Shown: positions 15,747-64,000 of the stretch, in pieces
Layout of the letters: the number at the start of each line of letters is the position of its first letter
How positions within the stretch are numbered: the first letter of the stretch is position 1
Origin: Octopus vulgaris
Lineage: Eukaryota
NCBI GenBank assembly: GCA_951406725.2
Contig: OX597832.1
Location: forward strand, 53,630,001 to 53,694,000
DNA length: 64,000 nt
Direction of reading: 5' to 3'
Translations under genes and position numbers: made by a program
The notes under the pieces: generated by a model
The model's database searches: none
What the model saw: only the letters and a program-made list of their open reading frames with translations
What the model was told of the DNA's origin: nothing

Positions 15747-17357
15747 CATTATTTGTGTATTAAGGCTACCATTGGTTTCATGCTAAGGAATGCCCGACAA
15801 TTACCAAGCCTATTATCACATGGAACATTTATGTTCATCTCCAGTTTGGATTAAAACACAGAAAGTCACAATAAAATCACATGAAATTTTCAGTAAACGA
15901 AAATACAAGACATCAAGGGAAACAAACTGTGAATGTTTATTTTCCTTCAATTCGACTTTTGGAAAAATTAAATTATCAGAATGCAATATATAAGAAAACG
16001 AACCTAATCACTTATAATTTTATCAATGTTGAAGCAAAAAATTAAAGCTACAAATCTTAAAATTGAAGAGAGAATAGAATGACATGTTTAAAAAATTTTT
16101 TTTTGTAACTCTGAAAGATGATAAACACAATTTTGCACAAAATTTTAGCTGTAGATTAACAAATTCCACAAAAAGCAAAATAGGCATTACTCATCATAAT
16201 CATCATCGTTATCTTGATGTCTTGTGTTTTCATTTATCAAAATTCTCATGATTTTATTGTGACTTTCCATGACATTTCATACTCTAATCCAAAATTAACA
16301 AATTCCACAAAAAGCAAAATAGGCATTACTCATCATAATCATCATCGTTATCTTGATGTCTTGTGTTTTCGTTTATCAAAATTCTCATGATTTTATTGTG
16401 ACTTTCCATGACATTTCATACTCTAATCCAAAATTAACAAATTCCACAAAAAGCAAAATAGGCATTACTCATCACAATCATCATCGTTATCTTGATGTCT
16501 TGTGTTTTCGTTTATCAAAATTCTCATGATTTTATTGTGACTTTCCATGACATTTCATACTCTAATCCAAAATTTAGCAAATTCCACAAAAAGCAAAATA
16601 GGCATTACTCATCATAATCATCATCGTTATCTTGATGTCTTGTGTTTTCGTTTATCAAAATTCTCATGATTTTATTGTGACTTTCCATGACATTTCATAC
16701 TCTAATCCAAAATTTAGCAAATTCCACAAAAAGCAAAATTGGCATTACTCATCATAATCATCATCGTTATCTTGATGTCTTGTGTTTTCGTTTATCAAAA
16801 TTCTCATGATTTTATTGTGACTTTCCATGACATTTCATACTCTAATCCAAAATTTAGCAAATTCCACAAAAAGCAAAATAGGCATTACTCATCATAATCA
16901 TCATCGTTATCTTGATGTCTTGTGTTTTCGTTTATCAAAATTCTCATGATTTTATTGTGACTTTCCATGACATTTCATACTCTAATCCAAAATTAACAAA
17001 TTCCACAAAAAGCAAAATAGGCATTACTCATCATAATCATCATCTTTATCTTGATGTCTTGTGTTTTCGTTTATCAAAATTCTCATGATTTTATTGTGAC
17101 TTTCCATGACATTTCATACTCTAATCCAAAATTAACAAATTCCACATAAAGCAAAATAGGCATTACTCATCATAATCATCATCTTTATCTTGATGTCTTG
17201 TGTTTTCGTTTATCAAAATTCTCATGATTTTATTGTGACTTTCCATGACATTTCATACTCTAATCCAAAATAGAGACAAACACTGATGTGATAGGTTTGA
17301 TAATTGTTGAGGTATTTCTTAACATGAAACCAATGGTAGCCTTAATGCACAAATAAA

Positions 17358-23899: not shown

Positions 23900-25400
23900 A
23901 GGAATTAGTACAGAGAGCATTATGTGACACCATCATTAATAATAGATGGTGGCACACCCTCAAGAGAGCAATCCGTTTAGAGTCTATTAGATTTAGCAGC
24001 CAGCTAAGTTTAGATAGATCTAGAATAGAAAGGGAATTAGTTAAGAATTTAGATGAGGCTTTGGAATCTAGCTCTGCAGACAGAGTGCTGGCAGTGAGAA
24101 TGATCTTGTACCATCACCTCAAAGCCAAACACAAAGGCTGTAGAGTTAGAGCTAAGCTATGAGAAGGTATTAATGTTGCCAGATGGGTCCGTCATGTGGA
24201 GTGTCAGAGGGGCAGAAAAGCCTCTGACGAACAGGGGTGTAAGATCTATGGACAGGAAAAGATGCAGAAGGCCTTTCACCAGCATTTCGCCCGCCGGGTG
24301 GTGAGCTAGAACATGGAGAGGTTCTAAAGGGCTACCTCGCCAGTGGGTTGCGACTCTCTGCACATGAGGCGGAATGCTGTGAAGGACCGATTACACCTGC
24401 AGAGGTAAAAGAGGTGTTGGCCAAGTGTGCTGGGGACAAGTCGCCAGGGCTGGATGGTCTATACAAACTTGTAAGGTGCTCCATCCGCTGCCAGGAACCG
24501 CTAAAGGGTGGGTTAGGGATGCCATTAAGGATGCCCTGGCTTATGATGCGCAAACATGTGTTGAGGCTGAGACATCTCTGGCACTACCTGGAGGGTGACA
24601 AGGTGTGGAATCCGCTGGCAGAGGAATTCTTTCCACGACCAGCCTCTTTGGAGAGATTCAAACTTGGTTTTATTAAAAGATGCAATCTGACAGAATGGCA
24701 AAAGGAGTGTTGACAGGCGCTCGTTTTGACCCACAAGATGGGCAAGGCCAGCAGTGGGAATACCACCTCGGTTTTGTATAGAGGGCTGGTAGAGTTTTAA
24801 AATGATGACGTCCTAGGAGGGGCTCTGGGGTTCAATGAGAACCAACTTAACAACCTGTTCCAAAAGACTCTTGAGCCGGAGTATTTGGATGATTACCAAA
24901 AATTCCTGACCTGGCAGTGCTACAGGGACGCTTTACCTGTTCGTGATAAGTTATCCAGGCACAGAATGTCAGTGCCACCAACATGTCCAAGATGTGGGCC
25001 GGATGATTAAACTGTCTCGCATGCTTTTGTACACTGTCAGAAGCTTTCGGGCTTGATAGCTTACATTGAACATGTGTTGTCACACCTAGGCAGAGTACAG
25101 CTATCAGCTGAATCTATAATAAAGATTGTGCCACCCACCAGACTCTTGAAGGAAGGTGAGGTATGTTTTCTCCTGACAGTGGCAGTGTTGAAATAGTGTG
25201 TTTGTAAGACTAGACTGCAAAGACTCGTGACGGGAACCTTCATCTCTGGTCCCAGATTGCTCACCTTTTTCAGATATCATCTGAAGAGCAAGATAGGGCT
25301 TGAGAGGAGACAACTGTCATGAAGTGTGTTTGACAAAAGATGGAAGGCTGTGGTAAGAAAGGTGGGTACAAGTGACCCTGCTTAATCTTCATGGAAAAGG
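23900..25400 (+). mobile_element. Decayed, internally deleted L1/Tx1-like LINE ORF2
   Basis: GPITPAEVKEVLAKCAGDKSPGLDGL (pre-RT) and LTWQCYRDALPVRDKL...CPRC...HAF (C-terminal zinc-binding region) with many disablements. Confidence 0.65.
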
Positions 25401-25887
25401 AATAAGGTGTAGTCGCTGAGCTCTTCAGCCCATCAAGTTTTACTCCCCAAAATTCAAATTACATATCATCCAAAATTTTTAAAAAAACAAGTATCATTCT
25501 AGCTCATTATAACAATAATTGTTTGTAGTGTCCTGTTTTGTCCCTCTTGTGTACGATAATAATTATCTTAATAAAAAAATTCACCTCTAGCCAAGCAATT
25601 ATTCTGTACTGATGAAGGGAAACAACTCAGAAATTGTGATACACAGATTTCGTTTTGAGCTGAGTGAGGGTGCTAGATTCCCTTGTTTGAAAATATAAGG
25701 ACACAGATCATATCGTATAGCCAGCTGGAAATGATGTCTCCTGGGGCTAAATTACAGCAACATTAGTCCTAAACCAGGACTGCCATATTATGTTGGCAAA
25801 TAATCTTTACTACAAAGTACTGTTGTTCCTGAATATCTCATGTTGTGAGATTAAAAAAATAATTTTCTAATTTATATATCAGTAACT

Positions 25888-49375: not shown

Positions 49376-49938
49376 TTGAGTTGTCCAGAAAGTTTGTGCC
49401 GATTTATAGTAGCTTACATTTCGACTTATTTTAGAACATGGTTGAGTCCATAAAATAGGATTTGACTACACCTCCATTTAGAGCACAGTTTAAGCCATCT
49501 TTTCGTGGAAGAAGGTTTATGTTCCTATAACCTGTGTTAATTCTGTAACCCTTTAAAATGGAAGATAAGAAAGTTCGTTTTCGGCACTTGTTTTGGGAAC
49601 CAGACAAAAATTGTTGCAGCTTGGCTGGGATGTGTTACCCCACCCTCCATATTCACCAGATATTGCTCCTTCGGATTTCCACTTATTCAGGTCTCTGCAG
49701 AATAGTCTTAATGGTAAGAATATAAATTCCTTGGATGACGTAAAAAGATACCTTGATGAATTGTTTGCCATAAAACCACCTCAATTCTGGGAAGAGGGTA
49801 TTTTCAAGTTAAAGGAAAGATGGAGACGCACTGTGCAACAAAATGGTTCATATTTGGTTGATTAAAAATGTAATGGCAAGTATTTATTGACCTTTTTCTT
49901 ACCTTTAAAAGTTGGCACAAACTTTCCGGACAACCCAA
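49376..49938 (+). mobile_element. Internally deleted mariner element
   Basis: TIRs ttgagttgtccagaaagtttgtgcc / ggcacaaactttccggacaacccaa with TA flanks; LPHPPYSPDIAPSDFHLFRSLQN. Confidence 0.9.
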
Positions 49939-50121
49939 TATTTGGTTTCCGTCTCCAATCAATAGCATAAGATCTTCAGATGCAACTCAGAAAGTAACGA
50001 GACACAAAGAAATGCTGCTAAGCATTTTGTTTGGTGCTCTAACGACTCTGCCAGCTCACTGACTTACAATAATAACAACAACAACATCGGCAACCACAAT
50101 AATAATCCTTTCTACACAATA

Positions 50122-51262
50122 ATAATCCATAACAATAACCTTTTCAGCCTTGAGGAAGTTCATGACCACTTTAGCCTTGTGACATGGGGCATTGTCTTGC
50201 ATGAATATGGGTGGTTGCTTAGTTGAATTTCTCAGCACAGGCAAGACATGATCTTTTACAAGTTGTTTATAAACTCCTGCATTTAACCTTTCCATGTAAT
50301 CGCACCAAATGTCCCACACCATCTCCAGATATCATCCCCCAAACCATGACACTTCCTCCACCGAATTTAACACTAGTCTTAAGGCATTAAGACGACAATT
50401 TTTCACCTACTTTTCGACGAACGTACCTTTTCCCATCTGAGCCAAATAACATAAACTTAGATTCATCACTGAAATGCACCGTTTGCTATTTTTCTTGAGA
50501 CCACAACACATGTTCGGTTGCAAAGATAAGACGACACTTTTTATTCTTGGAGCTAATCAGTGGCTTCACTGCAGGTGCTCTTGCTTGTAGGTCATGTTCA
50601 ACTAAACGACGAGACACAGTTTTTCGAGATAAAGTTTTCTTCAATACAATGCTCATTTTCCAAGAAACAGCAGCAGCAGTTTTAAAACTGTCCTTTTTAA
50701 CCAACTTTACCATAGCACGATCTTCTCTCTTGGTCGTTTTTCTTGGTCTACCTGTAAACTTTCTTGCTTCAAACGAACCACAATCATCGTAGATCTTAAG
50801 AATACCATGTACAACACTTTTTGACTTGTTAACAATCTTTGCAATAGATCCAATACTTAAATTATCCTTCCTTCGAAGCTTAATAATCTGCTGACGAATT
50901 GATAACGGAGTAAGTGGCATTATATTAACAAAGTACACTGTAAATATTCTTACTAATGCTTAGTAAATGAACCGTCACGTAAACAAATTCAAAACATTAG
51001 AGTTCGCCGGTTAAATATACTAAAACACGGAATAAAAGCAACCGTTCTGATCATTTTGGCCGCCATGGGTTTTGCAGTAAATCACTAAATCATCCATAAA
51101 TTTTGTATTATCCTCTCAAATTACACCAAAATCTCAGGCAACAACAAATAATATCGTATTTATTGTGTGTGAAAATTATAGAATATAAAACAACTTTAAT
51201 AAAAAATTATATCTACTTTTCTGACGAAAACAATGCCGTTCTGAACATTTTGGCCGCAACTG
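50122..51262 (-). mobile_element. 3'-truncated Tc1 element of IR-DR architecture
   Basis: TA|cagttgcggccaaaatgttcagaacgg terminus with an inner direct repeat at about 51041-51064; HTH, GRPRKT, FSDESKF and FMQDNAPCH; stop and frameshift present. Confidence 0.85.
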
Positions 51263-51429
51263 TATATACATATACACGACGGGCTTCTTTCAGTTGTGGG
51301 TGTGTGTATATGTTTGTTTGACTGTGTTTGTGCCCCCAAAATCGCTTGACAACCAAAGCTGGTGTGTTTATGCCCCTGTAACTTAGACAAGAGCTTAACC
51401 TCCTTGATTATTATAATGATAATGAGGAT

Positions 51430-51945
51430 ACACCACCTACTAAGGCAGCGAAAAAGTGTAAAACAAAAGCCAAACAGGAACACTTGAAGGAAATGTTGAG
51501 ACTGTGACAAGAAAAACCAATGCATGGGCGATACCCCAAATGAGCTGGGGAAGCTGATGTAGATATGAGAAGAACCTATCAGTGGTTGCAGAGTGCTGGT
51601 TTGGATGCTGAAACAGAAGGGTCTCCTCACCCAGAACTACCGAGCTAATGTCACATACAATGAAGAAGACACAAAGTGTAAACTCTGAAATGACAAACTT
51701 GAGAGCATTGACTACATTGTTGAGGGTTGCTTAGTCGTTTCCCCTACAGAATATAAAACCAGGTACAGTTGAATTGATCAATGCTTGCACTGGGGCATAT
51801 GCCATCGCTATGATATTCCGCACCCTAAGAACTGGTATAAACACCATCCAAAATCAGTCAGAGCATGAGAGAACATTACCATCCTATGGGATTATGGGAT
51901 ATATACAGACAGACAAATAAAATGCTAACAAGCCAGAAACAAGTT
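51430..51945 (+). mobile_element. Decayed Dong/R4-clade LINE C-terminal (zinc knuckle/REL endonuclease) fragment
   Basis: KPMHGRYP, YQWLQSAGLDAETEG, ESIDYIVEGC, NWYKHHP and TILWD..I.TDR remnants. Confidence 0.6.
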
Positions 51946-53961
51946 AAAGAATAAAAGAATAGCAGAATAATTCCTTTTTGGAACAGTGAAACTTAAAACA
52001 GATAAAGCTATAAAAAATAACCTGTAAATATAGGGTTAAAGACTCTATGGATGGAAAAAGTTGAAGGTTGCTTGGTTCAATGGTAAAACATTTGTCATGT
52101 TTACAGAGGATGTAGGTTCAAATCCCATGGGCAGCCTTTTGACTTTTTTTTTAAAAATCCAGTAGGTTTGTTTTTTTTAACTCAATATTCACACACTATT
52201 ATTTCTAGCTTTATCTGCTTCGAGATTCAGTTCCCCAAGAAGTTATATTTACAAAAACTGAAGGCTGCCTGTGAGACTCAAATAAATTTACGCTCTTTTG
52301 AATGTTTATCTTGTTATCTTTTACTTGTTTCAGTCACCAGACTGTGACCATGCTGGAGTACCGCCTCATAGAAATTTTTAGTCGAACAAATCAACCCCAA
52401 TACTTATTCTCTCGGTCTCTTTTGCTGAACCACAAAGTTACAGGGACATAAACACATCAATGGAAGCACTCCGTCGGTTACGACGATGAGGGTTCCGGTT
52501 GATCCGAATCAACGGAACAGCCTGCTCGTGAAATTAACGTGTAAGTGGCTGAGCACTCCACAGACACGTGCACCCTTAACGTAGTTCTTGGGGATATTCA
52601 GCGTGACACAGAGAGTGAAATACAGGTACAACAGAAACAGGAAGTAAGAGTGAGAGAAAGTTGTGGTGAAAGAGTACAGCAGGGATCACCACCATCACCT
52701 GCCGGAGCCTCGTGGAGCTTTTAGGTGTTTTCACTCAATAAACACTCACAACGCCCGGTCTGGGAATCGAAACTGCGATCCTATGACCGCGAGTCCGCTG
52801 CCCTAACCACTGGGCCATTGCGCCTCCACAAACACATCAATACCACTTGTCAAGCAATGGTGAGGGGGGAAAAAAACACAAATACAGAGACACATGCACA
52901 CACACATACAGAGGGTGGGCCAAAAATAGGTATACACATTTTAAATTTATTTATTTATTTTGCTTGCTGTATGTATGTCACAATGTTCTGGAAAGTTTTG
53001 AGGAATGTTGCAATGTTGATGGAGGACATTTTGATCTTTTACAAGATTAAACTGTGTTGAATAAATGTAATTGTAACAAATAAGTGTAAATGTAATAAAA
53101 TGAAAAAAATTTGAAGTGTATACCTGCTTTTGGTCCACCCTATATACAATAGGCTTCTTTCAGTTTCCATCCACCAAATCCACTCACAACGCTTTGGTTG
53201 GCCCAAGGCTACAGTAGAAGATTGAAGGTGACGTGCAGCAGGACTGAATCAGGAACCATGTGGTTGGGAAGCAGGCTTCTTACCACATAACCAAGCCTAC
53301 AACTTCAATAACATACAATTCTTGCTGGCAAGAATAAAGTTTCTCAACTGGAAAAAGAAATTCAAAATACTGCTTTGGTCTAGTGGTAGAACGTCTGTCA
53401 TGACTGCAGGAGATGTAGGCTTGGGAATCATTTGATTTTTTTCTCTCTATAGGACTTTTTAATCCAATATTCACATGCTTTTATTTATAGCTTTATCTAC
53501 ATGTGAAGGTGCATGGTTCAATGGTTAGAGCGTTGGGCTCACAATCATGAGGTAGTGAGTTTGACTCCTGGGATGGGCTGTGTGTTGTGTTCTTGAGCAA
53601 GACACTTTATTTCATGTTGCTCCAGTTCACTCAGCTGTAGAAATGAGTTGCGACATCACTGGTGCCAAGCTGTATTGGCCTTTGTCTTTCCCTTGGAATA
53701 ACATTGGTGGCATGGAGAGGTGAGGCTGATATGCATGGGTGAAGACTGCTGGTCTTACATAAACAACCTTGTCTGGACTTGTGCCTTAGAGGGAAACTTC
53801 CTAGGTTCAATCCCATGATTATCCATCACTGAAAGAAGTTGTCACCCTGTCTACTTTGAGTCTTCCCCATTCCAAAAAATAATTATTTCACACTCTCTCA
53901 AAGTTTCTACACCCATATGGTGTCAACAATGTATAGCAGAATATTTTTCAATGGCACTTAC

Positions 53962-54133
53962 CTAATTTTCTGGAATTCTTCAAGCAAGCACTCAGATTTA
54001 ACCTTAACTGTGTGTTATTGGTTCCAAGGTAATAGCTAATAATGGGATTTCCTACCATAATACTTTGGTAGCAGATTACAAAAACCACAATTACAAGCAA
54101 CAGAATACTTGCTCTTTGTAGACGTGCTAACAT
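53962..54133 (-). CDS. bre-4: GT7 glycosyltransferase coding exon 1 (cytoplasmic tail, transmembrane anchor, short stem)
   Basis: MLARLQRASILLLVIVVFVICYQSIMVGNPIISYYLGTNNTQLRLNLSACLKNSRKL, donor G|gtaagt (phase 1). An acceptor ctttctgtcttttgtcag lies just upstream (exon starts 54147), implying a further 5' UTR exon. Confidence 0.85.
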
Positions 54134-55540
54134 CTTTCAACTTTTACCTGACAAAAGACAGAAAGGAGATAAAACTTGTCTGAGTATGGCATAACTATCA
54201 AAAAGTCGACTTTACATGGATACAAAATAGCAGATATATACATGCATGCAGAAAGACATGCAGACAAGTATTCATGGGACCATCGCCGTTGTTGATGTTG
54301 TCATCATTGTCATTGGCAGCAGTTGTGGTGGTGGGGTCATCATCATCATCATCATCATTATTTCAATGCCTACTTTTCCATGCTTGCATGGATCAGACAC
54401 AATTTGTTGAGGCAGATTTTCTACTTCTGGATGCCTTTCCTCTCACCAACCCTCATTTGTTTCCAAAAAGATAATAGTTACCCTATGGCCAGACATATTT
54501 CCATGGAAAACTAGAAATGAATTACATTGCTTTTTTTACAGGGACATTTGTTTTACAATTATCACATGGTGTAAAAACAAGGACACACATAAACACACAC
54601 ACACACACACACACACAATGGGCGTCTTACAGTTTCTGTCCACTTATTCCAATCACAAGGCTTTGGTTGGCTCAGGACAAGGGGCCATGTACTCGGATTG
54701 GACCCAAAACCACATGGTTGGGGAGCAAACTTTTAACAAGACAAATGATTAGAGATATGCTGTGCTTCAGAACCCACCCTTCTCTGCAAAAACAATGTCC
54801 TATCAAGCTTCCTCCCACAACTTATCTTCTAACACCTATCCCTCCATCACTCTTTTAGCTACAGCACTAATTAGTATTCTGTTAGTTATGACGATGAGGG
54901 TCCCAGCTGATCCAATCAATGGAACAGCCTGCTCATGAAATTAATGTGCAAGTGGCTGAGCACTCCACAGACACAGGTACCCTTAATGTAGTTCTCAGAG
55001 AGATTCGGCTTAACATAGAATGTGACAAGTCTGGCCCTTTGAAATACAGGTGCAAATCCCGTTTGTCAGCTGAGTGAACTGGAGCAGTGTGAAATAAAGT
55101 GACTTGCCCAAGAGCACACTGTACCTCCAGGAATTGAACTCACAACCTTACAGTCATGAGCTGAACACACCCAGGTGCTGTGAATGATAACATTTATCCC
55201 CCTACACTTTTCATTGTCTCCCTATTACTATCCCTTATTACCACCTTCGCGACCTTAACCCACTCCTAGTTCCTTCACTCACTCCGAAACTGATATTCAA
55301 TATTAATTTCTTTATTGCCCATAGGGGGCTAAACATAGGACAGACAAAGTGATTAAGTCGATTACATCGACCCCAGGCCATAACCGGTACTTATTTAATC
55401 GGTCCCAAAAGGATGAAAGGCAAAGTTGACCTTGATGGAATTTGAACTCAGAACATAACAGCAGACGAAATACTGCTAAGCATTTCACCCGGCGTGCTAA
55501 TGATTCTGCCAGCTCACTGCCTGATATTCAATACTTCCTC

Positions 55541-55915
55541 CACACTGTGTGCCCCATACACTGTGTGCCCCATACACTGTGTGCCCCATACACTGTGTGC
55601 CCCATACACTGTGTGCCCCATACACTGTATGCTCCATACAGTGTGCCCCATACACTGTATGCTCCATACACTGTGTGCCCCATACACTGTGTGCCCCATA
55701 CACTGTATGCTCCATACACTGTGTGCCCCATACACTGTGTGCCCCATACACTGTGTGCCCCATACACTGTGTGCCCCATACACTGTGTGCCCCATACACT
55801 GTATGCCCCATACACTATGTGCCCCATACACTGTATGCCCCATACACTGTATGCTCCATACACTGTGTTCCCCATACACTGTGTGCCCCATACACTGTGT
55901 GCCCCATACACTGTG
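55541..55915. repeat. 16-bp minisatellite (tacactgtgtgcccca) x about 23
   Basis: Directly visible tandem unit with variant tacactgtatgctcca. Confidence 0.95.
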
Positions 55916-56135
55916 CTCACCTCAGTCCCCATCTGCTATTCTCCCTTCACACTCTCTTTCTGTTCCTCTCTCCCTATCCTTTCGCTTATATCCCCCTTTG
56001 TAGCTAGAAGGTATACCTTCAGACATGAAATGATGAAGATTTTTTGTATGTATGTAGGTGGGTAGGTAAGTGTGTGTGTGTATGATAAAACTTACTTCGA
56101 AGAGGATGCATGGTGTTCAATCATATAATAATATA

Positions 56136-56167
<32 letters not shown>

Positions 56168-56171
<4 letters not shown>

Positions 56172-56815
56172 TATTAGAGAGTTATCCACTATGTGGATGA
56201 CTCTAGTGCTAAAAATAGCTCCGAAGCAACCACAGAAGATCCGTTTCCAACTAGAATCAACACACATTTAACTGAAGGAAAGTGAAATACAACGAATAAA
56301 ATAGATTGACTCTATACAATTGTTTCATTACTAATGCAATATGTAGTTTTACTTACACTTGCATCCATAAATCTTCGGTAGAGTTTGTCAGAAATGCAAT
56401 TAATTAGATCGATTTGGGCGTCAAAAACACGAGCGGTCCAACCAATTACATTTTTATGACGCCCGAATCGATCTAATTAATTGCATTTCTGACAAACTCT
56501 ACCGAAGATTTATGGATGCAAGTGTAAGTAAAACTACATATTGCATTAGTAATGAAACAATTGTATAGAGTCAATCTATTTTATTCGTTGTATTTCACTT
56601 TCCTTCAGTTAAATGTGTGTTGATTCTAGTTGGAAACGGATCTTCTGTGGTTGCTTCGGAGCTATTTTTAGCACTAGAGTTATCCACATAGTGGATAACT
56701 CTCTAATAATTTATGTATAAATTTGTATTTTCTCCGTAGTTTTTTGTGCTAAGCCACTTGGTGTTAAATTGACGGTATTATTAAATTAATATCGATTTTT
56801 CACCCTCATTTATAA
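56168..56815. mobile_element. Penelope-like foldback element: 256-bp inverted arms (56168-56423 / 56457-56712) with a hammerhead motif in each arm
   Basis: About 2 mismatches between arms. Plus-arm motif 56496-56571 actcta-CCGAAGA-...tgcaa...ttgca...-GAAAC-aatt-GTA-tagagt; mirror at 56309-56384. Flanked by (TA)n. Confidence 0.75.
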
Positions 56816-57013
56816 TTATATATATATATATAATTATATATTATATTATAGTTATCGTCATACTAATATGGCATTCTTATAAAAATAAGAAAAAAGCTGT
56901 CCGCTTATTAGCTCCATGAGGCCATCGCCTTAAGTTAGCTATTTGATACACAAACTGTATCCATATAACCTTCGAACAAGGGAGGTCAGTCGCTCCACAC
57001 TACTTGACCGGCA

Positions 57014-57055
57014 GCTACAGACGCGTTTCGGGGTATTGCCCCTTTTCAATGCAGC
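57014..57055 (-). ncRNA. Minimal type I hammerhead ribozyme motif, U3-A8 core (copy 1)
   Basis: Minus strand: gctgca-TTGAAAA-gggg(caata)cccc-GAAAC-gc-GTC-tgtagc; all three stems paired; palindromic ACGCGT stem III. Confidence 0.8.
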
Positions 57056-57372
57056 GTAGCCAGCCTATAGGTGTCGCTTCCGACAATCTCTGTTCGATGG
57101 TTTTATTTACCTAGTTTCGGTGGAATACATCCAATGTTTTCAATAATAGAAATATTAAAATAACTAAGTCTCTCTAAAAGAGAACAGCGGCAGCGTTCCG
57201 GAAAATAATAGTTATCGCCATACTAATATGGCATTCTTATAAAAATAAGAAAAAAGCTGTCCGCTTATTAGGTCCATGAGGCCATCGCCTTAAGTTAGCT
57301 ATTTGATACACAAACTGTATCCATATAACCTTCGAACAAGGGGGTCAGTCGCTCCACACTACTTGACCGGCA

Positions 57373-57414
57373 GCTACAGACGCGTTTCGGGGTATTGCCC
57401 CTTTTCAATGCAGC
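57373..57414 (-). ncRNA. Minimal type I hammerhead ribozyme motif, U3-A8 core (copy 2)
   Basis: Identical to copy 1, 359 nt away in direct orientation. Confidence 0.8.
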
Positions 57415-57667
57415 GTAGCCAGCCTATAGGTGTCGCTTCCGACAATCTCTGTTCGATGGTTTTATTTACCTAGTTTCTTATTTTTATAAGAATGCCATAT
57501 TAGTATGGCGATAACTATTATTTTCCGGAACGCTGCCGCTGTTCTCTTTTAGAGAGACTTAGTTATTTTAATATTTCTATTATATATTATATATTATATA
57601 TATATACATATATATATATATATAATTATATATTATATATTATATATATATATATATAATTATATAT

Positions 57668-57708
<41 letters not shown>

Positions 57709-58129
57709 TATATATATATATAATTATATATTATATATATTATATATATATATATATATTATATATATATATCATCATCATCATCATCATCGTTTAACGT
57801 CCGCTTTCCATGCTAGCATGGGTTGGACGATTTGACTGAGGACTGGCGAACCAGATGGCTGCACCAGGCTCCAATCTTGATCTCGCAGAGTTTCTACAGC
57901 TGGATGTTCATCCTAACGCCAACCACTCTGAGAGTGTATTTACATTAAAAAGGTGTAGTTTTATTTTGATTAAAATACCAGCAATGTCAGAGCAAAACTT
58001 TTTACTACAGTTCACCTGCATTTAGTCACGCACTCTCACTCCTTTTTGCTGCTTTAGTCTTCTACTAGCGACACAAAGAGCACATGCATTATGTTTTATT
58101 AATTGTAAGATAATCTTATAGAAGATATT

Positions 58130-59062
58130 ACTTTCATAGAAAGAATTATGATACAGATACAATTACTCACTTGTATGAATATGTTACATGTGTAATCAAT
58201 TGTCTTTTTGGGGAATGATTTGTCACAGATATCACAGAGATATGGCTTCTCCCATGCAAAAATGTACTTTTGTATAGTTAAGTTATCATTTTGAAAGAAT
58301 GAAGTATTATAGATTTCTTTCCTGCATGAATGGATTTGTGTTTATTTAGCTGATTATTTGGAGATAATGATTTCCCACAAATGTTACAATGATATGGCTC
58401 CTCTCTTGCATGTATGCTTTTCTGTGTATTTAAGCTACCTTCCAGAGAGAATGATTTATTACAGACCTGACAGTGATAGGGTTTCTCTCCTGTGTGAATA
58501 CGTTTGTGTTTACATAAGTTACATCTTTCAGAAAATGATTTACCACAAATATCACAGTGATATGGTTTGTCTCCAGTATGAATACATTTGTGTGTATAGG
58601 CGCAGGAGTGGCTATGTGGTAAGTAGCTTGCTTACCAACCACATGGTTCCGGGTTCAGTCCCACTGTGTGGCACCTTGGGAAAGTGTCTTCTACTATAGC
58701 CTCGGGCCGACCAAAGCCTTGTGAGTGGATTTGGTAGAAGCCCGTCGTATATATGTATATATATATATGTGTGTGTGTTTGTCCCCCTAGCATTGCTTGA
58801 CAACCGATGCTGGTGTGTTTACGTTCCCGTCACTTAGCAGTTTGGCAAAGAGACCGATAGAATAAGTACTGGGCTTACAAAGAATAAGTCCCAGGGTCGA
58901 TTTGCTCAACTAAAGGCGGTGCTCCAGCATGGCCGCAGTCAAATGACTGAAACAAGTAAAAGAGTAAAGAGTTAAATGATCATTTCAAGAGAATGATTTA
59001 CCACAGATGTCACAGTTACACGGCTTCTCTCTTGTATGAATACATTTGTGTTTAGCTAAGTG
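58130..59062 (-). pseudogene. Decayed C2H2 zinc-finger array interrupted by a SINE (58599-58970)
   Basis: [25 protein letters not shown] | [90 protein letters not shown], then frameshifted fingers. Confidence 0.8.
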
Positions 59063-59122
59063 TATGTATGTATGTATGTATACTAAGTGCATTTTTAGGG
59101 GAAACAGTTATGACTCCTAAAT

Positions 59123-59513
59123 CGGTGGTTCCCAGCCTGTGGTCCACGGACCCCTGGTGGTCCACAAAAGTAATACTTGGGATCCGTGAACATGTTAACC
59201 CTTTTGTTACCAACCCGGCTGAAACCGGCTCTGGCTCTGTAGTACAAATGTCTTGTTTACATAATTTTTGAATTAAAATCTTCCCCTAAACCTTAGTCAC
59301 AATTTATTTTCCTAACACTAGCTTTAATGGTAGCTAAGTTATTTTACTAAATTCTTTGCTATATTTAAAGTAATTGAAAGAAACACAGAGCATCTCAAAA
59401 TAAATACAGTGACGAAAGGGTTAAGCTGACAGGCCTTTCAATATCCTGGGGCCCATGGGAAAACTCATTTAAGTGAAAGGTGTTCTTGGTAGTCAAAAGG
59501 TTGGGAATCACTG
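59123..59513. mobile_element. hAT MITE with nested piggyBac-type MITE (59199-59420)
   Basis: cggtggttcccagcct ... aggttgggaatcactg with imperfect 8-bp TSD (tcctaaat/tccttgat); inner TTAA|cccttttgttac ... gtgacgaaaggg|TTAA. Confidence 0.75.
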
Positions 59514-59704
59514 TCCTTGATCATAGTCATATCATTTACTATACAACTAATAATCTGACCTGCCAACGTTTATAATTGCAGACTGAATTAGATGGCTGTA
59601 TCAGTGCTTTTGAACATACCCTACTAAACACTGCTTGTAACAGTTGACAAGTCTGCAGAATGCAACTGGAATGTGAAGACAATTTGGAAGCAATAAAATT
59701 TTTT

Positions 59705-60138
59705 CGGTCTTTTTGGTTTGAACGGCAGTTTTTAACCTAATTTCTAGGTAACTAAACACTTTTAAACTTCGTATACTGGTAGAATGTGTTTATAAAACAT
59801 CTTTTTCTCTTGGCTTTATTGAGAAAATTCTATAGTTTGTAAGATATCTGTTGCTTTTTTTTTTCTTCAATTTCTGCAATTTCAACCAATCAATGACGTC
59901 TATTGAGGTAAAAAAAAAACATTCTGTGCCGTATGAATATGTCCCTCGTTTAAGAAACAGACTGGGTTTATTTACATTTGTGAAGAAAAAAAGACACCCT
60001 TCTCCCCACCTCTAACCCTAACTAACCCCAACCCTAAAACAGATTGAAATGCAATAGATTGATACTAGGGTCATAATTATGGGTGACAATTTCATATGAC
60101 ACCGCAAGAAAAAATTGCCGTTCAAACCGAAAAGATCC
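59705..60138. mobile_element. Unclassified TIR MITE with internal (CCCTAA)-like repeats
   Basis: tctttttggtttgaacggcagttt ... aaattgccgttcaaaccgaaaaga. Confidence 0.6.
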
Positions 60139-60149
60139 AGTTTTTTTCT

Positions 60150-60850
60150 AAACTGAACAAAAATGCAACAGAAATTTATGAAATGTTCCAGACTGCTTAT
60201 GGATAAACTTGTATGTACTGAGCCTCTATTTCTTACTGGCACAGGAGATTCAATGATGGTAGAGTGGCAGTGAGAGATGACGCGGAGTGAGGGAGGGAGA
60301 ATGGTATTAGAACATCAGACCTGGTTCAGAAAATTCTCAGTTTTCTGGATGGAGTTGGTGTGGGGAAATGTACACAAAATTATTCACGAAGATTTGAACA
60401 CATGCAAAATTTGTGTAAAGTTTGTTTCCAGGGTGCTTGGTGATGAACGGAAGGAAAGATGCATTGGTGACAGTGTCGGAAGATGGTTAAGTTCATTACC
60501 TTGAATCCAAGAGTACTTGAGTCTCTGATGACATGTGACAAAAGCTGGATCTACTGTTATGAGACAGAGATCAAAAGACAGAGCGTTCAATGGAAGCATC
60601 TTGGCTCCCCCAGACCCAAGAAGGCCAAGCAAAACAAGTCCACCAAGAAGCTCACGAAGATTCCCTTTTTCAACAGCAAGAGCATCATCTACATCCACTG
60701 GTCCCCTCTGGCCAGTCGGTCAACAGAAAGTACTTTGTGGAGGTTTTGAAGGAGTCCAGGAAGATATTTCATTGCAAAAGGCCAGAGCACCTCCACCAAG
60801 CCACAGTTCCATTCTGGTAACCAACTACTTGACAGAGGTGGACATGATAA
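60150..60850 (+). mobile_element. Decayed mariner transposase fragment
   Basis: HKIIHEDLNTCKICVKFVSRVL and TCDKSWIYCYETEIKRQSVQWKHLGSPRPKKAKQ. Confidence 0.75.
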
Positions 60851-62099
60851 CTACCGTAAATCCTCGAGTATAATCCGCATTTTTCCCCCAAAATTTAAAG
60901 GTCAAAATTCCTAGTAATACCATTAGAGCACACTCAAACTTCTTCCGCAATATGAAGAGAGAAGCAGAGAACATCCAGACTTCTCTAGCAACACAGAGTA
61001 CATCCAAATCCCTCTGGCTATACAAATAGAGTACACCCAAACTCCTCAGACAATACAGAGTACATCCAAATGTAAATAGAGTGCATCCAAGCTCTGTCGT
61101 ACTTTACATCGTTAATAGTTGTGATAAGCTCAATTTAAACTCACAGCATAGAGAGAAGTTACTGTGTTAGTGAAGAAAAATAAATGGTACGAAATCAAAT
61201 AACTTGGATGAATACTGAATCAAGCCTTGCTTATTGACTGAACTAATAAATGACATCCATTACTCTTTTACTCTTTTACTTGTTTCAGTCATTTGACTGC
61301 GGCCATGCTGGAGCACCGCCTTTAATCGAGCAACTCGACCCCGGGACTTATTCTTTTGTAAGCCCAGTACTTATTCTATCGGTCTCTTTTGCCGAACCGC
61401 TAAGTTACGGAGGATATAAACACACCAGCATCGGTTGTCAAGCAATGCTAGGGGAACAAACACAGACACACAAACACACACACGCATATATATATACATA
61501 TATACGACGGGCTTCTTTCAGTTTCTGTGTACCAAATCCACTCACAGGGCTTTGTTCGGCCCGAGGCTATAGTAGAAGACACTTGCCCAAGGTGCCACGC
61601 AGTGGGACTAAACCCAGAACCATGTGGTTGGTTAGCAAGCTACTTACCACACTGCCACTCCTGCGCCTTAGTTTATTGTCTCTAAATATGTTTCTAACCG
61701 ATATTTGAACTATGTTCAGAACATAAAAACCCTTCTGCGTGCATCGGTATACATACACGGAAACAGTCACAAAGAAATCGATAATGAGATAATGATAATA
61801 ATAGTTTCAAGTTTGGCCCAATGCCAGCAATTTCGAGAAAGCATGTAAGTCAGTTGCATCGACTGGTACTTATTTTATCGACCTCGATGGGATGAAAGGC
61901 AAAGTCGACTTCGGCGGCATTTGAACTCAGAACGTAAAGTTGGAAGAAATGCTGTCAAGCATTCTGCCATTTCGCCAAATTTTGACTCTGCATTAAATCC
62001 AGGGAACTTGTTTTCATCGACTCCGAAGGAATAAAAGGCAAAATCGACCTCGGCGACATCGGAACCGAGGTCGACATGGCCTTTCATATCTTACTATGT

Positions 62100-63350
62100 G
62101 ATATAAATAATAAAGAAATAAAGTTTTTGAGGAATAGCATTTACGTCGTGGTTTCTTGACTGCGACAGCCTGAAAGTCCCGTCTCTTATAACCCAGGTAC
62201 CAAGAAACAAGTATTCGGAATGTTTATAACATTTCTAGTCCAAAGAACAACAACGATTGTTCCACAGAAAAGAAAATTGATGTTTATTATAAATAAAACT
62301 TTAGTAAACAAAGTTTATTTGACGTATGAAAAGAAGAAGAAAAAAACCATTATTAAAAATGCCGATTCGTGGGAATAAAAAACGAGAAGTAGAAATAAGT
62401 TTCTCAAGAGAATATGAGAAATTTAGAAAGAATTAACGAGTCATCAAATAGTAATTAGTCGTAGACAATTAACAAGAAATAGAGTAAAATGTAAATATGT
62501 GTAAAATGTAAATAAACGCATTAATTATGTAGTACTTTAAATAATACCCAATACAAATTATCGCGAATGAATCGATATTTATAGTTTACATAGAAATTCC
62601 TCGATATTTCTAATAATGATTGATATTTAACAATTCTCGTACAAGAAAGAATAATTAAAAACCAGACTTACATCTTACCGTACTGGGATGGCATTTATCT
62701 CGGATTCTGTTTTTAATTATTAATTTAACTGTTCGAATTAATTCCAAAGGATTTATTATTTCACGTCCACACGCAAAACTGTTGCGCCCCGACATCTCTA
62801 AACGTCACAAGAATCCTCTATAAGTTCCAGCATTTAATGGGATACAGTAAAGGAACCAAGCTGAAGAATGTGTCCTCTTTTCATGTACATATTTTGTATG
62901 TCTATATGTATTTATATATTAATTGATATGTGTATCCCTATATATATTTTCCCACTCGCTGTTTACCGAGAGAATAATTTTGTTGAATGATTAAAACTTT
63001 CGGAATTCCGTTCGAAAATTCCATTAAAGTATACTTTTAGAAACGCTTTCGAGCAAAAATCCTATGATATTCCAACTTTTTGCTTGTTTTCAGTTTTAAA
63101 TGAGAGCTTAACCTTGTTAACTAATACCTTGGTTCGTTGTGTTCTTTCTTTGAGAAAGCAGAACGAAGCAGTCAGCAGCATCGTTGATTGCAGAGAGGAA
63201 GCAGTATGGGATGCTGAAATAGTAAAAGATAACATCCTTACTGTCCCACAACGCTGGAAGAAAAAAAAAACTACATCGTTAAGCAAATTCTTCTGTACCT
63301 TAAAACGAAATAGGAAACTATACGACATAAAACTATAAATTTAGTTTGCG
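62100..63350 (-). promoter_or_regulatory. Candidate promoter / first non-coding exon region of the GT7 gene
   Basis: Repeat-free stretch visibly richer in CpG than the gene body. Minus-strand donor-like sites ACG|gtaaga (exon end 62679) and AGAT|gtaagt (62672). Coding exon 1 has an acceptor that needs an upstream exon. Confidence 0.4.
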
Positions 63351-63486
63351 GGTCCAATTGCTTCTAAAATTAGACCCCCACCTTTAAAAATGGTCTGCAT
63401 AAGCATACATTAAATCTATGACACGTCATTCCTAAATGGTTACAGTCTCAGAATTAAACCTTTTTCACTATACATATGTGTATATA

Positions 63487-63517
<31 letters not shown>

Positions 63518-64000
63518 TGTGTGTATGTATGTATGTATGTATGTATGTATGTATGTATGTATGTATGTGTGCGTGTATATGCATGTGTGTGTGTGTATAT
63601 ATATAGAATGTTATGAAAAAAGAAAACATACAATAATCTTTTTTTTTACTCTTTTACTCTATTATATGTTTCAGTCATTTGACTGCGGCCATGCTGGAGC
63701 AACCCATTTTAGTAGAACAAATCGACCCCAGGACTTATTCTTTGTAAGTCTAGTACTTATTCTATTAGTCTCTTTTACCGAACTGCTAAGTTACGGGGAC
63801 GTAAACATACCTGCATCGGTTGTCAAGCGATGTGGGGGGGGACAAACACAGACACACACACACACACACATGACAGGCTTCTTTCATTTTCTGTCTACCA
63901 AATCCACTCACAAGGCTTTGGTCGGCCTGAGGCTATAGTAGAAGACATTTGCCCAAGGTGCCACCCAAAAAATTAAGTTAGCCACATTTTTGATATTTTC

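Follow-up and report, generated by a model that had tools for sequence, protein, structure and literature searches.

The window analysed here is a 64,000-nucleotide (nt) stretch of the Octopus vulgaris genome (assembly GCA_951406725.2, contig OX597832.1, positions 53,630,001 to 53,694,000 of the forward strand). At 56845..57583 it carries, on the minus strand, an insertion of a repeat family that we call F1, which on its sequence is a retrozyme of the non-LTR kind (LTR, long terminal repeat), that is, a young, dispersed, non-coding tandem family with a unit of about 360 nt. The insertion consists of two head-to-head arms within a (TA)n tract, with a TA-rich remnant of the target tract on the left (56810..56847) and TA-rich target sequence on the right (57581..57772); within such a tract, no target-site duplication of the retrozyme is readable. 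With the monomer numbered from window position 57477 and counted downward, the direct arm (minus strand) comprises unit 1 (57119..57477, monomer 1-359) and a partial unit 2 (56845..57118, monomer 1-273), which stops at a short fixed end, A, at 56845. The inverted arm (plus strand, 57474..57583, monomer 226-335) stops at a long fixed end, B, at 57583, and carries a 62-nt tail. The initial annotation had described two identical minus-strand hammerhead motifs in a partial tandem of about 360 nt, together with a terminal inverted segment and (TA)n flanks, and all of these are present: the motifs are 42 nt each (57414-57373 and 57055-57014), the direct repeat covers 274 nt (56845-57118 versus 57205-57477, 98-99% identity), TA tracts lie on both sides, and the inverted segment of 110 nt is 100% complementary to 57143-57252, forming a 110-bp perfect hairpin. 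Both motifs (57373..57414 and 57014..57055, minus strand) are predicted minimal hammerheads of type I, with predicted cuts after 57379 and 57020; the predicted cleavage nucleotides, C17, are spaced by 359 nt, and cleavage would give a monomer or circle of 359 nt (57020..57378, minus strand). A recent inverted duplication takes in the window, the identity nearby being 98.7%, and the matching site of the paralogous segment is a pure TA tract of approximately 0.6 kb without the F1 insert and without its neighbour, an insertion of an unrelated family, F3. Either both inserts arrived after the duplication, or both were lost from the paralogue via recombination between TA tracts.

F1 is abundant in the octopus genome. 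A 39-nt stretch of the motif occurs in 759 exact copies in 2.8 Gb, compared with 0 for a reversed control, and hence the motif is not a chance occurrence. Searching the genome with F1 DNA gave 191 matches, nearly all 92-100% identical, with the best 40 of 1006 candidates scored, and copies were spread over more than 20 contigs. The unit measures 362 nt in most copies and 359 nt at the window locus, and array size ranges from a partial unit up to about 12 units; the 359-nt monomer has 41% GC and no ATG-started frame longer than 21 codons. A sister family, F2, is 80% identical to F1, retains every core base and the palindrome of the motif, and is itself young (best copies 96-98% identical; best 40 of 2736 candidates scored). 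The region between A and B is 90-96% conserved between F1 and F2, versus 77-82% elsewhere. The retrozyme cassette proposed in the initial annotation stands as a non-LTR retrozyme with a dimer-type minimal hammerhead; it is not a special cassette, being one of several hundred dispersed copies with ends of the type seen in Penelope-like elements (PLEs). In the accessible parts of the accounts of animal non-LTR retrozymes (PMC7229834; 10.64898/2026.07.22.740005), the features shared with F1 are non-coding, low-GC tandem units of 150-450 bp with a type I hammerhead each, dispersal as monomers to multimers, a strongly folded monomer, and PLEs in the same genome; a mussel family of 350-390 bp is similar in size. 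The retrozymes of Cervera & de la Pena 2020 (PMC7229834) mostly carry canonical ribozymes according to the same material, whereas the F1 motif is of the minimal U3-A8 kind. Unlike the animal non-LTR retrozymes as described there, F1 has ends that are resolved as PLE A and B ends within (TA)n tracts, no PLE was found whose terminal repeat is related to it, and its circles are predicted ones. No cephalopod retrozyme was found in the open-access literature searched, Repbase and subscription papers lying outside that search.

The ends of F1 follow a strict rule. We fetched 107 loci (30 + 17 best-scoring ones, and 60 in listed order from the exact-motif search), of which 100 were kept after 7 duplicates had been dropped. 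Outer ends fall at two sites 62 nt apart, A at 269-278 (mostly 273) and B at 326-336 (mostly 335), and nearly always lie in (TA)n. Head-to-head arms were present in 77/100 loci. Both ends were canonical in 71 of these 77, and all 71 paired one A with one B (AA 0, BB 0; P = 4e-22 versus a coin); the other six had one odd end. Among the 23 single-arm loci the end was A in 9, B in 11 and something else in 3, from which independent choice of ends would predict that half of all pairs be alike. The 60 loci chosen without regard to score gave the same picture (43 inverted: A+B 38, one odd end 5, AA or BB 0). The odd ends at L196 and L052 had the look of the start of a parent open reading frame (ORF), which on comparison they proved not to be. 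By eye, the A+B rule was also found in F2 (11/11 two-armed insertions with canonical ends, and 4 more with an odd end), in F3 (6/6), and in the two autonomous PLE families of the genome (PLE-1 3/3, PLE-2 13/13). Over the five families, 104/104 two-armed insertions with canonical ends were A+B, including 33/33 outside F1. A tail at one end has been reported as optional or frequent in PLEs in the available text of four papers (PMC8557442, PMC3846280, PMC4209133, PMC11167929); the pattern is therefore known in kind, and its strictness was not found stated in the portions of the literature that were searched.

The two autonomous families, PLE-1 and PLE-2 (loci L174-L190 and L299-L318), are young, intact and Neptune-like, with a reverse transcriptase (RT) plus a GIY-YIG domain at the C terminus, in frames of 781 and 753 amino acids. 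Both have (TA)n targets, two ends, and hammerhead-like U3-A8 motifs with a palindromic helix III. PLE-1 has a CxxC motif of the Neptune/Nematis type, as presented in the accessible text of PMC8557442, and PLE-2 has a similar motif. Upstream of the RT frame, PLE-1 also contains about 1.4 kb of largely open, ORF-like sequence, and there are tandem motifs in its 3' region. Judged by what is available of four papers on endonuclease-positive PLEs of the Neptune/Nematis type (PMC8557442, PMC3846280, PMC4209133, PMC11167929), F1 shares with them the U3-A8 minimal hammerhead, the (TA)n target, the partial tandem with a head-to-head 5'-truncated arm, and the optional tail; it differs in that those elements have an ORF and F1 has none. 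At 100 F1 and 30 F2 loci, no unit was seen joined in cis to an RT + GIY-YIG frame; where a PLE copy is close by, as at two of the loci, the insertions are separate. At L110:6165-7301 (minus strand), a PLE-like RT fragment without a Pfam match is located 4.5 kb from an F1 array. The identical insertion anatomy suggests that F1 is likely mobilised in trans by a PLE, and would thus be a non-autonomous PLE.

Units within a locus are homogeneous: divergence amounts to 0.5% within an arm, 0.6% across arms and 1.6% between loci. Both window units read TA for CT at monomer 52-53. The variant A at that position was seen in 0/193 other full F1 units, and in 2.8 Gb the two-base variant occurs just twice, each time at the window locus, as would be expected if one monomer had been copied twice. 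Locus-private variants were rejected as a general proof of circles, since genome-wide support was obtained at the window only and two other tests failed. We also mapped 173 inner breakpoints from 96 loci, with 4 loci bearing a long interspersed element (LINE) left out. They cluster at 135-148 (27 versus 6.7 expected) and at 95-105, a stretch spanning the cleavage site (14 versus 5.3 expected; P = 0.001, uncorrected); they were rejected as proof of cleavage in vivo, because both clusters lie at predicted helix entries. The two arms overlap at their junction by 2-4 nt in 43/77 loci. F2 loci (L162:13-292, L194-L223) have the same ends, and their inner breakpoints again fall near 131-153. The strongest hot spot, monomer 135-148 (window 57343-57330 and the unit 2 counterpart), sits at a conserved GTTCGAA motif, for which a transcription start or an RT pause at the base of a long rod are candidate readings; a tRNA-type internal promoter around the motif was discarded by eye, the box spacing being too short.

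The F1 motif has the core UUGAAAA, a U3-A8 pair, a 4-bp stem II and a palindromic helix III, ACGCGU (hammerhead numbering). In an alignment over 42 nt that was read by eye, F1 and F2 differ by 7 substitutions and 1 insertion, with 0 in core bases. The changes fall in the free N7 position, at the base of stem II (G-C to A-U), in loop II, in helix III (ACGCGU to ACAUGU, with the palindrome kept) and in stem I (G-U to G-C), and one terminal pair is broken. Among 416 motif copies (those in the fetched loci, with overlapping loci kept), the two commonest F1 variants change stem II from G-C to G-U, in 45/416 and 24/416 copies. A covariation count on alignment A1 was discarded because stem II was misaligned. 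The monomer has a predicted folding energy of -114.5 kcal/mol, compared with -85.8 +/- 5.5 for 100 shuffles (z = -5.2), and helix III is predicted to stay open when it is folded as a circle. These features suggest that F1 likely has a self-cutting RNA motif. The U3-A8 pair is a covariant of C3-G8 that is described for PLE minimal hammerheads in the available text of PMC4209133. Poor cleavage, or a requirement for protein, is reported for such hammerheads in the accessible parts of PMC4209133 and PMC11167929, and 1/9 retrozyme dimers were cleaved in vitro in what is available of 10.64898/2026.07.22.740005.

We consider it probable, with good confidence, that the insertion in the window is a young non-LTR retrozyme that was likely mobilised in trans by a PLE. 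Several observations weigh against this reading. No hammerhead family matched window 50000-64000 in an Rfam scan admitting E values up to 5, so that it is from inspection, conservation and folding that the motif is called a ribozyme. No RNA data set with the element was listed in a search of sequencing runs. Neither PLE-1 nor PLE-2 has similarity to F1 or F2 by blastn, and for PLE-1 the local alignment scored within the shuffle range; in the GIY-YIG endonuclease searches the best 150 of 6136 and the best 150 of 17642 candidates were scored, and hence a parent PLE may have been missed. The F1 tail of 62 nt is longer than the usual 30-40 of PLEs. The F2 query ended at B, and AA pairs could therefore hardly have been sampled in that family. 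Two other variants shared within a locus occur elsewhere too, with 4/6 and 5/10 matches in their own locus, so that a multimeric parent array, perhaps an unassembled one, or gene conversion could also explain the homogeneity, and 121/139 sample-private substitutions are in one unit only. The larger breakpoint cluster is that at 135-148, not the cleavage site.

The initial annotation had placed the insertion in the first intron of a GT7 glycosyltransferase gene, on the condition that the gene starts near 62.7 kb, and proposed an intronic circular RNA. The gene does lie on the minus strand, its catalytic exons at 23-37 kb matching PF13733 and PF02709. In the first coding exon, which encodes a membrane anchor (53962..54147, minus strand), the ATG comes 14 nt after a splice acceptor, so that there has to be a non-coding exon upstream of 54147. 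The insert, lying upstream of the coding sequence, would be in an intron of the 5' untranslated region (5'-UTR) if transcription starts beyond 57.6 kb, and this position is plausible. The window copy would then be in sense orientation, and it could be co-transcribed and cut at both sites, with a 359-nt circle released. In keeping with this, the motifs are on the gene strand, and the double hammerhead is the minimum-energy structure of a 531-nt transcript lacking the inverted arm (57480-56950), with a helix III pairing probability of 0.94. These are predictions of nested structures, without pseudoknots. For the 633-nt direct arm, the double-hammerhead fold costs 5 kcal/mol; with the inverted arm included, the nested fold costs approximately 84 kcal/mol. 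Moreover, the inverted arm is transcribed first, and would form a 110-bp duplex with unit 1 around hammerhead 1 before hammerhead 2 exists. The paralogous gene copy lacks the insert, which is therefore not a conserved feature of the gene. On balance, we regard release of an intronic circle at this locus as unlikely: the gene strand and a plausible intron position survive from the proposal, and the circle itself is weak here, as the inverted arm disfavours the double-hammerhead fold. In a read-through transcript, a double-stranded RNA hairpin is the likelier predicted effect. Since the double-hammerhead fold is predicted to lose out to pairing by the inverted arm in such RNA, the window copy is likely a passive product, and a single intronic copy is in itself probably ordinary. 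The duplication of the GT7 region pairs window 36000-64000 with C19:53.51-53.545 Mb in inverted orientation (about 91-99% identical), and a third GT7 exon is found at C19:53.81 Mb, near another F1 copy (L230:7039-7934).

A reading of the insert as no more than a 5'-truncated terminal repeat (pLTR) from an autonomous PLE, with no self-standing retrozyme family behind it, is quite improbable. All of its end features are those of PLE insertions, as that account requires; against it, head-to-tail units run up to about 12 without a coding spacer, the LINE is the only coding sequence common to loci among the flanks compared, and F1 has no similarity to the terminal repeat of either young PLE.

This LINE interrupts three F1 loci at one and the same point. 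It is 5.4 kb long, with a CCHC knuckle in ORF1 (PF00098) and an open ORF2 of 1140 amino acids containing APE, RT and a zinc finger (PF03372, PF00078, PF13966). Its site is a duplicated 17-bp sequence at monomer 38-54, 9 nt upstream of stem I. When the 3' end was used for searching, with the best 40 of 418 candidates scored and 30 fetched, 20/30 copies ended at the 17-bp F1 site; among the other ten, one was 97-98% identical and nine were more distant, mostly at ATAC-like sites. A pattern search found 21 LINE junctions at 16 loci. Four junction variants occur on at least four target haplotypes, which also exist without the LINE, and this shows independent targeting. One 5'-truncated copy has the duplication, which also stands between the LINE copies where these are in tandem. 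Divergence is 0.7% among LINE copies and 1.7% among their flanking units (background 1.5%; 17 loci). Some copies have also moved as cargo, as indicated by an A+B insertion (L116) with one arm running into the LINE and then stopping, and by the weak correlation of LINE with flank distances (rho 0.29). In the window copy the two target sites (57424..57440 in unit 1 and 57065..57081 in unit 2, minus strand) are empty, and the private two-base variant of the locus falls within both. LINE copies (L108, L109, L111, L114-L134, L236-L243) include a five-copy cluster on C2 (73.04-73.07 Mb) and a head-to-head pair on C11. An older relative, one of the ten copies away from the F1 site, abuts the 5' end of a U1 snRNA gene, and another lies about 400 nt from a U2 gene (L141:1850-2015 and L137:2251-2444). 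An older remnant of the same lineage, 76% identical, is present in a GT7 intron (window 23901-25425).

From its architecture the LINE is presumably of the L1/Tx1 type. None of the best 120 proteins in a homologue search carried a clade name, and the nearest LINE relative with a name was from Argonauta. According to the accessible text of PMC4494074, some Tx1 families have other transposons and satellites as their targets, such as Tx1 in Tx1D, Keno in U2, Tx1-Mar and satellite-targeting families. With these, the octopus LINE shares an ORF2 with APE, RT and zinc finger, a CCHC ORF1, a fixed insertion site duplicated over 17 bp, tandem copies with the duplication between them, and another repeat as target. 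It differs from them, as far as they are covered there, in that the target is a hammerhead retrozyme, that an older relative sits at the U1 snRNA 5' end, and that some copies are carried in PLE-type A+B insertions. No LINE targeting a retrozyme or ribozyme repeat was found in the open-access literature searched, so far as its text was available. The youth of the LINE, its open ORF2 and its physical linkage to F1 might suggest it as the enzyme that spreads F1, in a partnership like that of short interspersed elements. We hold this to be very improbable: the LINE has a 17-bp duplication of its own, made at a different site; F1 copies lack poly(A) and, in the manner of autonomous PLEs, stop at A or B in (TA)n; and the rule extends to F2 and F3, at whose sampled loci such a LINE was not seen. 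A minisatellite nature of F1, with DNA recombination as the means of spread and a hammerhead-like motif that is dead or present by chance, would fit the missing Rfam match and the tandem arrays, but is hardly credible in view of the more than 20 contigs, the fixed outer and variable inner ends, the inversions, and the structure-preserving changes between F1 and F2.

Other features surround the insertion. The neighbouring F3 insertion in the same TA tract (56152..56812) has a 493-nt tandem unit and 276-bp inverted arms with one short and one long end. F3 has 2364 candidates, with (TA)n targets and A+B ends about 100 nt apart; a motif scan revealed no hammerhead in it, and it is possibly a ribozyme-free non-autonomous PLE. 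A broken C2H2 zinc-finger array with an 84-nt period (58102-58654, minus strand; Pfam zf-H2C2_2) adjoins the insertion tract. Tc1/mariner transposase remnants occur at 50489-50959 (PF01498) and, by eye, at about 49560-49870 and 60380-60820. There are tandem arrays at 55542-55915 (16-nt unit, 23.5 copies) and 16155-17271 (139-nt unit, 8 copies, 98%).

To return to the retrozyme mobilised by a PLE, a route for its spread can be proposed. In multimeric transcripts from arrays elsewhere, two hammerheads would fold into a dimer, which likely would cut the transcripts to monomers, and these would circularise. The PLE protein, for which the accessible literature predicts a dimer, would then cut into a (TA)n tract by nicking its two strands. 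Of the two cDNAs, one would begin at A (273) and its partner at B (335), both on a single template haplotype; each would run a variable distance, often more than one round of the unit, and the two inner ends would join, mostly via microhomology of 2-4 nt. A tentative extension, which we hold to be possible rather than probable, is a three-tier parasite: a PLE dimer may prime two strands at two fixed sites of one circular RNA, the retrozyme circle may ride on this process, and the LINE may recently have switched to the retrozyme from U1-like sites.

The origin of the inverted arms, tandems and optional tail of PLEs is an acknowledged open question in the available text of PMC8557442 and PMC11167929. 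F1, which is short, young, non-coding and present in hundreds of copies, brings to that question a sharp rule of one A plus one B. It also offers the in vitro PLE assay, which already exists, a substrate of 360 nt, together with two intact candidate enzymes in the same genome. The link between retrozymes and PLEs is extended to a cephalopod genome, the 2026 survey (10.64898/2026.07.22.740005) being mainly on vertebrates in its accessible part, and a LINE that targets a ribozyme repeat adds a target class not found in the literature searched. If the three-tier reading is true, every two-armed insertion would get exactly one tail and tandems would be written in one event; the LINE, in turn, could borrow the transcription of the arrays, be excised by the flanking ribozymes, and reach new loci through the PLE enzyme.
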